NCBI GenBank assembly: GCA_963693365.1 | Contig: CAVNZM010000003.1 | Coordinates: 1,151,506 to 1,215,505 of the forward strand | Length of the DNA: 64,000 nucleotides | DNA from: Amoebidium appalachense | Lineage: Eukaryota > Protista > Ichthyosporea | Reading direction: 5' to 3' | Shown here: positions 51,901 through 54,900 of the stretch, piece by piece | Position numbering within the stretch: position 1 is the first letter of the stretch | Layout: each line of letters begins with the position of its first letter | Position numbers and translations under genes: made by a program | The notes under the pieces: generated by a model | Told to the model about the DNA's origin: nothing | Databases searched by the model: none | What the model saw: the letters and a program-made list of their open reading frames with translations, nothing else

Positions 51901-54900
51901 GGGGAGGGGGGAGGGAGGAGGGAGGGAGAGGGGGGGGGGGGGGGGGGGGGGGGGGGGGCTGGTTATATGTTTGAATACGAAGTGCACATTCACAACGGAC
52001 AACACAATTCAGAGTGCAAACCACCCACGCGGGGGGGGGGGGGGGGGGGGGGGGGAGGGAGAGAGAGAGAAGGGGGGAGGCGAATATTAGTACCTACACT
52101 GCAGGTGCACAGTACGTTAGATCATGTAAACCAAACAAGGTAGCACTTCAACCTTTTCTTTTCCTTTTTTTTTTTTTTTTTTTTGGGGGGGGGGGGGGGG
52201 GGGGAAGGGGAAAAGGAGGAGGGGAAGGAGGAAGACAGAGCGAGAGCATGAGAGAAAGAGAGAGTAGAGGGGGGGGGGAGGGTGAGAGAGAGGGAGACAG
52301 AGAGGGAGAGGGAGAGGAGGAGAGGGGGGGAGAGAGAGAGAGAGAGAGAGAGAGAGAGAGAGAGAGAGAGAGAGAGAGAGAGAGAGAGAGAGAGAGAGAG
52401 AGAGAGAGAGAGAGAGAGAGAACGAGAGAGAGAGAGAGAACGAGAGAGAAAGAAAGAGAGAAAGAGGGGCGAACAGGGGGGAGGGGGGGAGACAGAGAGA
52501 GAGACAGCGAGAGAGAGAGAAAGAGAGTGCGGGGGGGGGGGGGGGGGGGGGGAGAAGGGTCATAATGTACGAAGTACACAACAACAACGGGTAACACGAT
52601 GCAGAATGCAAACCATACAGAAAGTGTATGCATAATAAGCAGAGCCCATCCTCAGGGGGGGCGAAGGGGAGGAGGGTTTGGGAGTTGGGAGGAGAGAGAG
52701 AGAGAGAGGGGGGGGGGGGGGGGAGGAGGGGAGGTCCCAACCTGTTTCTGAGAGAGAGAGAGGGGGGGGGGGGGGGGGGAGGGGGGGGAGGGGTGGGGGG
52801 AGGGGGGGGGAGGGGGAGGGGGGGGGGGTGGAGGGGAGGGGGAGGGAGGGAGGGAGAGGGGTTTGCTCCAACCTGTTTCTCGACAAGATGTGCCGCCACC
52901 GCGGCAGCCAGAGCCGCCTTGGCCTCCCCCCCCTCCCTCTCCAACTCGGTCACCACTTGCATGTGTGACTCATGTTGTGCTAGTGTCTCTCCCTCTTCCA
53001 TCTTGTTCATCTCTTCCAATTCTCTCTCTTTCGATTGCAGTTCTCTCTTTAGTTTTTCCGTTTCTTCTTCGTGTCTCTCCACTTCTCCCCTCAGTCTCGT
53101 TATTTCCTCCGTGTCGTTTTCTTTCGTTTCCAGGTCCCTCTTTAATTTCTCAATCTCTCCCTCGTATTTCTCCATCTCTCCTCTCAAAATCACGATTTCC
53201 TCCGAATCCTTCTGCTCTTCCAGATCCCTCTTTAGTTTCTCACTCTCTCCCTCGTAGTTCTCCACTTCTCCTCTCAGTTTCAAAAGTTCCTCCGAATCCT
53301 TTTCCTTTTCCTCCAGAGCCCTCTTTAATTTCTCCATTTCTTCTTCGTATTTCTCCATTTCTCCCTTCAATCTCGCAACCTCCTGCGTGTCATTCTCCTT
53401 CTCAATCACCTTCAGTTTCTCGATTTCATCCTCGTACTTCTTTACCTGCCCCGTTAGTTTCACAATCTCTTCTTCCTTCTCCTCCAATTCCATTTTCAAA
53501 TTTTCAATCTCCCCTTCGCGCTCAGTCACGCAAGCCGTCAACTTTTCCACCTCTTCCACGAGACTATCCATTTCCCTCCCTCCTTTCAGAACATCCTCCT
53601 TAGCTTCTTCAGTCCCTTCCTCCTTTAATTTCACTCCCTCCTTCATCCTCTCAATCTCCCCCTTCAACGTTTCAATCTCCGCCTCCTTATTTTCATCCTC
53701 GTTATTATTCCCCTCCTCCAATTCGGCGATTCTGGCATGATTAGCCTCGATCTCGGCTTCCAATTCGTCGATCTGTTTGTTCGCGTCCTTTAACTGCTGT
53801 TCGACGTAGGCAAGAGTCTGCTCCAACTCTTGTTTTTCATTGGTCGCGATCCCCGTGTTCTGATTTGCCGTCTCGTTCTCCTCCGATCGTTGCTCGGCGT
53901 TGGAAAGCGCGGCCTCCAAATCGGTATTCTCCAGTCTCAACCGAGCCAACTCCTCCTCCAGATCCTCCGTCCGCGCGATCGCGTTAGCCAATTGCTGCTC
54001 GAGTTGCTCCAACTTATCGTTATCGGGTTCACCGATCGGCATCGATCTAGCTCCGATTACGACGCCCGCCACGCCGACCACTGCTGCCGCCGCCGATTTC
54101 GACGAAATTTCGTTATTGGATTTGTGGGTTTCGGCCGCAAGAGCCTCTGCCGTGATCTGGTTCACCAACACCTCTACCATATGCTCCAATTCGCCGATCC
54201 GCTCCTCCTCATTGGTCAACGTTTCCGTCCAATCACGTTCGGCCTTTGTCACGTGATCGTTAATCTCCTCCGCCTTTTCCGACAGTTCGTTCCGTTCCTT
54301 CTCCCAATTGGCGAGTTTCGATTGGGCGTCGGCGAGTTCTAATGGCAGTGCGGCGAGCTGTTCTGATTGGTCGGTGTGATCGGCTGCCAATTTCTCGAGG
54401 GCGGTGATGGTTGCTAGGGCCGTTGCTAGGGCCGCCTTCTCCTTGGTGTGGTCGGACTCGAGTTCCTTCAGTCTATCCTCAAGCTCCTGTGTGTGTGTGT
54501 GTGGGGGGGGGGGGGGGGGGGGGGGGGGGGGGGGGGCACAGGTGGATGGTGTGGAGGGGAGGACCGATTCGTTAAGGAAAAGGGGGTGTGAAGCAGTGGT
54601 CGCCAGGGGGGGTGGAGAGTGGGGGGGGGGGGGGGGGGGGGGGGGGGATGTATGCGTTTTAGGGTTGGAAATATGGAGGAGACACCAGAGGACAACAACA
54701 AAGCGTCACAAAAATGAGAAACCCGAAATCAAACAATGTAAGCGTGCAGGCAGAAGACGCTTGAACAGAGCCCATCATCAGGGGGGTTCCTATGCCTCCA
54801 CAAAAGCATGGGTTTCGACTCTCGAACCTCTTGCGCGTGGTTCCCAACCCATACTTCGTTTCCCGCGGGGGGGGGGGGGGGGGGGGGGGGGGGGGAGGGG

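Follow-up and report, generated by a model that had tools for sequence, protein, structure and literature searches.

A permuted hammerhead motif in a high-copy, poly-C-tailed repeat of Amoebidium appalachense and its probable link to Naiad/Chlamys-type Penelope-like retroelements

The hammerhead ribozyme (HHR) can be described as three blocks, the cleavage site (S), GAAA (G) and CUGAnGA (C), and the order S-G-C is known as the type-SGC non-circular permutation (HRIMA-1 and variants; Eckert et al. 2023, PMC10085705). In the sections of that paper used here, type-SGC cleaves at 0.007-0.19 per minute and is found only in metatranscriptomes, with none in any known organism's genome, save one doubtful GCS case. 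The published SGC descriptor is limited to a stem I of 4-7 base pairs (bp), linkers of up to 8 and 15 nucleotides (nt) and one U after A9, and type-CSG is in print from two metagenome sequences only. Penelope-like elements carry HHRs in their flanking repeats, and short non-coding HHR repeats are tied to these elements; cutting and circularisation have been proposed for hammerhead RNAs of retrozymes and Penelope-like elements (sections used of PMC4209133 and bioRxiv 10.64898/2026.07.22.740005). Naiad and Chlamys elements are described, in the part of Craig et al. 2021 (PMC8557442) covered here, as showing 5' truncation and tandem copies, as having derivatives that are non-autonomous, and as lacking a canonical HHR; (C)n and (CA)n targets are reported for Chlamys elements, and eight families have half a core with the other half 35-50 nt away. 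We analysed 64,000 nt of the ichthyosporean Amoebidium appalachense (assembly GCA_963693365.1, contig CAVNZM010000003.1, positions 1,151,506 to 1,215,505; hereafter the window), which has a hammerhead motif of S-G-C order at 54767-54857 on the minus strand. With a probability of roughly 0.65, the repeat carrying this motif comes from a Naiad/Chlamys-type Penelope-like retroelement, either as its 3' end or as a derivative that does not code for protein, and has a hammerhead predicted to cut that element's RNA after GUU.

The permuted motif at 54767-54857 is real and exceeds chance. A descriptor in which blocks S, G and C were permitted in any order was run on the window, and it gave two matches, at 54767-54857 and 17081-17170, both in the order S-G-C and carrying 18 and 19 bp in ~90 nt. 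In 150 local Markov shuffles, 89 weak matches were obtained (0.59 per window), none with at least 18 bp within 100 nt. The strands named in an initial annotation of this DNA were all present at their expected positions on the minus strand, as follows.

54843..54856 (-): block S, with the stem III 5' strand (54856-47), GUU with U17 at 54846, and the stem I 5' strand (54845-43)
54823..54842 (-): S-G linker, 20 nt, predicted hairpin, containing all three motif differences from the subfamily majority
54804..54822 (-): block G, with a stem II strand (54822-17, C11.1 at 54817), GAAA (54816-13) and the stem III 3' strand
54785..54803 (-): G-C linker, 19 nt, predicted to carry a kink-turn-like GA (54798-97) in full-length members
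54793-89 (-): segment of the G-C linker, predicted partner of an upstream module in full-length members; the partner strand is lost here
54775..54784 (-): block C, with the stem I 3' strand (54784-82) and CUGAUGA (54781-75)
54763..54774 (-): strand after A9, with the downstream stem II strand (54772-67) and a possible 4-bp I-II helix (54766-63 with 54789-86)

The core contains CUGAnGA, GAAA, NUH and the A15.1-U16.1 pair; C3-A9, G12-A14 and U17 are likewise intact, H17 is U, and no core position departs from the canonical base. This core is flanked by stems I, II and III, of 3, 6 and 10 bp (stem III pairing 54856-47 with 54813-04), with G10.1-C11.1. The downstream stem II is preceded by a 2-nt insert after A9, and GAAA sits 35 nt before CUGAUGA. 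The cut predicted in the initial annotation, between 54846 and 54845 after GUU, is the one expected by analogy with hammerheads, and the intron placement proposed there also agrees with frame continuity, by which a 740-nt GT-AG intron (55226-54487) is predicted with the motif on its sense strand. Rfam gave 76 matches at E up to 1 in the window, none of which overlaps this copy or the one at 17 kb. Hammerhead types I-III, with their circularly permuted, nested order, were not matched, given the S-G-C order and the lack of Rfam matches at either copy. Note that nested folding of the whole copies gave unremarkable z-scores (0.22 and -0.76), pseudoknots being outside the reach of the method.

The stretch at 54862-54649 is a 5'-truncated copy of a high-copy, poly-C-tailed repeat and not a feature of the host gene. 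Where two copies had initially been claimed, motif and profile searches found 12 in the window, with a single match at E 0.4 in a reversed control; 11 were used to build the profile and hence match it by construction, and one more was found at E 0.001. All three hammerhead blocks are kept in only two of the 12, and the tandem pairs in the window lack complete cores. The copy under study ends 5 nt before stem III on its 5' side and has lost the upstream strands. The copies and their C runs are listed below.

54649..54862 (-): this copy, subfamily 2, 5'-truncated, flanked by two C runs; the family extends further 5' than 54862
54621..54647 (-): poly-C run at the 3' end of this copy, likely insertion target; loose end at 54661 in 22 (run X1) and 24 (run X14) contigs
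54867..54895 (-): poly-C run at the 5' junction of this copy
17047..17290 (+): subfamily 1 copy (the 17 kb copy), truncated at 17047, in an intron of the Sip1/raffinose-synthase gene (spliced joins at 17015 and 16975)
17081-17170 (+): core of the 17 kb copy, with the cut predicted to fall between 17090 and 17091
25820..26001 (+): decayed member of a third subfamily in which block G survives, with an internal C run and a broken core
52556..52660 (-): truncated copy beginning at block C
9445..9580 (-): truncated subfamily 1 copy beginning within CUGAnGA (E 7e-36)
19249..19363 (+): truncated copy
18244..18516 (+): a head-to-tail pair of truncated copies, of which 18244-18332 matches weakly (E 0.001) and 18377-18516 is nearest to subfamily 2
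2916..3185 (-): a head-to-tail pair of decayed copies with a C-rich tract between them
51961..52029 (-): 3'-end-only copy between C runs
41599..41684 (+): 3'-end-only decayed copy

At 80% likeness, contigs falling on this copy numbered 2162, 1814 and 1634 in DNA runs X1, X14 and X3, respectively, and 78 in run X12, and those falling on the 17 kb copy numbered 6936 in X1. Summed contig depth, which was not taken as copy number, climbs from the 5' end towards block C. As judged by loose ends, both subfamilies extend 5' of the window copies and terminate at a C run, and some contigs link copies head to tail across C runs. A C run of at least 9 lies within 40 nt of the 3' end in 10/10 copies examined, as against 108/1599 background 40-mers, although our drawing the 3' boundaries at C runs inflates this count. 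A short stem closed by a UUC loop, a candidate recognition site for a reverse transcriptase (RT), lies ~20-30 nt before the C tail and is kept in most subfamilies but not in subfamily 2 (e.g. 17263-17273 (+) and 52568-52579 (-)). Repeat contigs occur in runs X7 and X13, in which spliced exon joins were also seen although no run is recorded as RNA; transcription of the family is therefore probable, with DNA carry-over in these two runs possible. X1 had no coverage over 16925-17041, a gap to which no weight is given.

We compared the two complete copies and the subfamilies behind them. Compensatory changes, which the initial annotation had seen in all three stems, number two in stem III and one in stem I; its extension of the claim to stem II did not stand, because only one-sided G-U changes occur in the downstream stem II and the GGCUCU strand is invariant. 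In the subfamily 1 majority, the terminal G-U of stem III becomes G-C (17132). Since no stem or core variant reached 5% in DNA runs X1, X14 and X3, the stem differences are fixed differences between two subfamilies. In run X12, a C3 variant was present in five contigs and a few stem variants in one to three contigs. Relative to the majority sequence of its subfamily, this copy is changed at 10 of 214 places, three of them in the motif and none in stems or core, a pattern compatible with chance (P about 0.10). The downstream bodies, which had been described as different, do differ and yet are homologous, that of this copy matching the 17 kb copy (nhmmer E 0.0007) and the 18.4 kb copy (E 0.006). 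The selection on a permuted fold that had been proposed is thus supported, but these alignments place it on the master RNAs of a mobile repeat family, among which the fold is conserved, and give no sign of selection at this locus.

The family's main stem II probably uses a strand upstream of the motif and not the downstream GGCUCU. The 6-bp stem II of the initial annotation does form, and is probably secondary to an upstream strand with 5/5 Watson-Crick pairs and compensatory change, which this copy lacks. The upstream features of the 17 kb copy are the following.

17054..17066 (+): upstream module, alternative stem II pairing 17054-58 with 17117-21, G10.1 at 17054
17071..17077 (+): kink-turn-like strand pairing with 17133-42: 3-bp stem, 3-nt bulge, G.A, A.G, U.U, G.U

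All five pairs of the upstream stem II are Watson-Crick, including G10.1-C11.1. One purine after this stem, and just before stem I, the I-II helix pairs 17060-66 with 17143-49 over 7 bp. The predicted energies are -7.1 kcal/mol for the upstream module and -5.1 kcal/mol for the downstream stem II, and the module arose in 152 of 200,000 shuffles. In subfamily 2, the loose end 5' of 54862 reads by eye as the same module with three compensatory changes; agreement along this end is 0.65-0.69 in the DNA runs and 1.0 over 22 letters in X12. The 3-nt bulge and the tandem G.A/A.G pairs lie between the I-II helix and stem III, and tandem G.A/A.G pairs after a 3-nt bulge are the rule for kink-turns. A second loose end, running 5' from 17047 (37 contigs at an agreement of 0.93, with one X13 contig identical), was also read by eye and gave two further helices for subfamily 1, namely helix IV (8+3 bp), formed with the strand after A9, and hairpin V (8 bp), the end of which lies beside G10.1. 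By extension from subfamily 1, the strand after A9 is predicted to form helix IV in full-length members generally. We consider it likely that this split-core fold, with the upstream strand, is the main fold of the family, and somewhat likelier still that the ribozyme of the family is active. On the other hand, activity of the present copy is doubtful on the same modelling: having lost the upstream strands, it would be either inactive or refolded as a plain type-SGC using GGCUCU, and such refolding, itself only a tentative prospect, would probably give a slow ribozyme. An alternative helix, in which the S-G linker would pair with the strand preceding stem I, was set aside, as it overlaps the better upstream helix.

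Given this layout, we compared the repeat with the Naiad consensi of supplement File_S5 of PMC8557442, as far as that file was covered. Seven, namely Asuum, Hpol, Hcon, Naiad-3_Nbra and three without read headers, show by eye complete type-CSG hammerheads with an I-II helix near their 3' ends. Four others, Naiad_Plae, Naiad_Ovul and the family preceding each, have by eye the split-core layout; in these four, the upstream strand gives 6 bp, whereas the strand after A9 gives no G10.1-C11.1 with a full stem. Helix IV has only 3 bp in the two octopus-type ends among these four. The marks by which Naiad and Chlamys elements are recognised, 5' truncation, head-to-tail copies and a microsatellite target, are all seen in the repeat here. 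Non-autonomous derivatives are a further point of likeness. These likenesses suggest that the repeat is probably Penelope-related. We found no publication describing this fold or a link between Naiad elements and hammerhead permutation, subscription journals being mostly outside the coverage of the search. In sequence collections, 8 viral and 77 metagenome matches to the pattern were obtained, 0/85 of which passed the stem test; a second pattern gave no viral and four prokaryote matches (about the chance level), the best of them lacking the S or G blocks.

In the mechanism that we propose, the core of full-length members would be split between A9 and G10.1, with G10.1, stem II and the I-II helix provided by the upstream strand. 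This last helix would be turned back from stem III by a kink-turn-like bend, and the strand after A9 would pair with the 5' end as helix IV, stacked beside hairpin V, thereby holding A9 near G10.1. Cutting of tandem or read-through transcripts would free unit RNAs, which an RT/GIY-YIG protein of the Penelope type could copy into (C)n tracts, and early termination of copying would yield 5'-truncated copies. For ribozymes of this kind, it has been proposed that the unit RNAs they free may become circular and serve as templates for copies longer than one unit (PMC4209133, in the part used here), and the copies here keep sequence 5' of the cut, as would be explained if circular RNAs templated more-than-unit copies.

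Several observations weigh against this interpretation. No copy among the 12 in the window begins at the predicted cut, and contig depth has no step there. When folding is restricted to nested pairs, CUGAnGA is preferentially buried in a local hairpin in both copies. For helices IV and V, the reading comes from subfamily 1 only, the loose end of subfamily 2 being too short, and the repeat family was viewed only up to 30 nt further upstream. The count of C runs at the 3' ends of copies is inflated by the choice of boundaries. In the window, only LINE (long interspersed nuclear element) RVT_1 was found among the 5 + 123 open reading frames (ORFs) scanned, with no Penelope RT or GIY-YIG ORF. The Naiad readings were made by eye on consensi picked by motif search from part of the supplement, so that no rate can be derived from them; among the same consensi, Naiad_Ptep has by eye stems I and III in S-G-C order with no stem II, and the ends of Naiad_Lpol and Naiad_Dcar appear by eye to have no core. 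Furthermore, the 3' untranslated regions of both Chlamys consensi examined, the (C)n targeters, lack CUGAnGA; the target type thus points to one sub-clade and the ribozyme type to another.

The strongest competing explanation keeps the mobile repeat and changes the ribozyme: a plain type-SGC would do the cutting, the upstream strands serving as an off-switch in full-length RNA and the truncated copies being active. The downstream stem II pairs 6/6 in both copies and is followed by a 4-5 bp I-II helix with one compensatory change, the topology is known to cleave (PMC10085705, sections used), and many genomic copies retain sequence 5' of the cut, as an off-state predicts. However, GGCUCU never covaries, needs up to three G-U pairs, and pairs only 4/6 with the strand of the third subfamily (loose end at 17139); in the four split-core Naiads, it is again the upstream strand and not the strand after A9 that gives a full stem by eye, and we therefore regard a plain SGC ribozyme as unlikely. 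Less probable again is a short interspersed nuclear element (SINE) or retrozyme moved by another enzyme, a LINE or an RT of some other kind, with a hammerhead acquired independently of Penelope-like elements. Such an origin would fit the lack of a Penelope ORF in the window, the presence of two identical LINE ORF2 copies, which mark a recently active LINE, and the two Chlamys consensi without the motif. It is opposed by the LINE 3' end, which does not match the repeat profile, by the helix-by-helix agreement with Naiad 3' ends in the supplement covered, and by the (C)n targeting described for Chlamys elements in the part of PMC8557442 used.

A host-selected element conserved at this locus, whether an intronic regulator of the coiled-coil gene in which the copy lies or a box C/D small nucleolar RNA (snoRNA)-like element, is very improbable. 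The motif is in sense orientation in an intron, none of its three private changes falls in stems or core, and UGAUGA and CUGA words resemble C/D boxes. Nevertheless, the family to which this young, truncated copy belongs has thousands of contigs, the change pattern has a P of about 0.10, the orientation follows the strand bias of C runs, and none of the 76 Rfam matches (E up to 1) lies at either copy. The box C/D snoRNA interpretation was rejected on copy number, truncation and the lack of an Rfam match. A chance arrangement of short words or an assembly artefact might be suspected from the 0.59 weak descriptor matches per shuffled window and the unremarkable fold z-scores (0.22 and -0.76). 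This is effectively refuted, as 0/150 shuffles were as strong, the pairs are kept in two diverged subfamilies, and contigs of several independent runs cover the motif. A Penelope-related repeat with a split-core hammerhead thus remains our preferred explanation.

The host intron of this copy is as follows.

54487..55226 (-): predicted intron of the coiled-coil gene, 740 nt, phase 0, GT-AG, by frame continuity

C runs are biased to the sense strand of two large host genes (74:11 and 26:4), and the copies stand in sense orientation within introns because the C runs lie on the intron sense strand. The coiled-coil gene (49000-60667 (-)) encodes a very long acidic protein with exons of up to ~2 kb, repeated Ala-rich linkers and no specific Pfam family. 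The intron-rich Sip1/raffinose-synthase gene (PF05691) occupies ~12000-27900 (+), and splicing around its 16977-17015 exon was seen in RNA contigs. An ORF upstream of it (11067-11462) has a weak glucan-water-dikinase Ig-like match, and an intron of the Sip1 gene holds a tRNA at 22612-22685 (+) followed by a T run (Rfam E 7.5e-10, anticodon CAC by eye). Exons of an AMP-binding enzyme (PF00501), which we take from its motif to resemble a fatty acyl-AMP ligase, lie at 46188-47137 (-). Introns of a predicted SNARE-like gene (by eye) contain short tandem repeats at 39860-40070 and 41950-42470 (+), with a ~33-nt unit and a longer unit repeating an exon-like word. A tandem array at 61900-62950 (-), in which a ~30-nt unit takes turns with poly-C tracts, has related words at 61360-61560 and may be a further (C)n-targeting element. 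The two LINE copies, at 4618-7854 and 31545-35943 (+), have an identical 1078-aa RT ORF2; the second has a 403-aa ORF1 and the first is 5'-truncated. They share ~350 nt of 3' sequence with internal (CA)n and A runs and were likely active recently. This resident LINE was considered as the partner enzyme of the repeat and rejected, since its 3' end has no match to the repeat profile.

If the split core is correct, the assumption that CUGAnGA leads directly into stem II would be overturned, and there would be an explanation for the descriptor searches in which Naiad and Chlamys elements were called hammerhead-free. More tentatively, A9/G10.1 may be a fourth natural site at which the non-circular hammerhead is opened, with a two-helix junction and a kink-turn closing it again; this could be the missing ribozyme of the Penelope-like elements with an N-terminal endonuclease, from animals to non-animal eukaryotes, the spare stem II strand letting 5'-truncated insertions refold as an active plain SGC. 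Truncated copies would then be a living intermediate of the interconversion of permutations, scattered in many sense-strand introns. Published non-circular hammerheads come only from contigs of metatranscriptomes and metagenomes, besides a single doubtful case in a bacterium, and a high-copy nuclear family offers a tractable, covarying source in a cellular genome. It makes testable the role of a ribozyme in Penelope-type retrotransposition, and whether the Naiad and Chlamys clades do without one, and it raises the matter of how a host tolerates potentially cutting RNAs in its sense-strand introns.

Compared with the known systems, as represented by the sections of the cited papers used here, the repeat resembles retrozymes and the HHR repeats of Penelope-like elements in being short, non-coding and HHR-bearing, and an extra base at A9/G10.1 is common in those hammerheads. 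They are however of type I, often minimal and dimeric, occur in tandem arrays and avoid introns in Xenopus, whereas the repeat here has a non-circular order and a long stem III and is dispersed in intronic C runs. An HHR of type I in every tandem unit, which characterises retrozymes without long terminal repeats (non-LTR), is not found, the order being non-circular and the tandem pairs in the window lacking complete cores. Naiads are animal elements that often target (TA)n, while the present repeat sits in C runs; PMC8557442, in the part covered, reports no canonical HHR and does not describe the split-core or CSG folds. Relative to the published SGC ribozymes, this copy, compared by hand, falls outside the descriptor limits, which would miss it because of its 3-bp stem I, linkers of 20 and 19 nt and 2-nt insert. 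Finally, the published SGC motifs are from metatranscriptomes and the motif here is in a nuclear high-copy repeat. PMC10085705, in the sections used, assumes an uninterrupted block C; one giving stem II and the I-II helix is possible in this copy, but full-length members have a better covarying upstream strand, from which they likely take G10.1, breaking that assumption.

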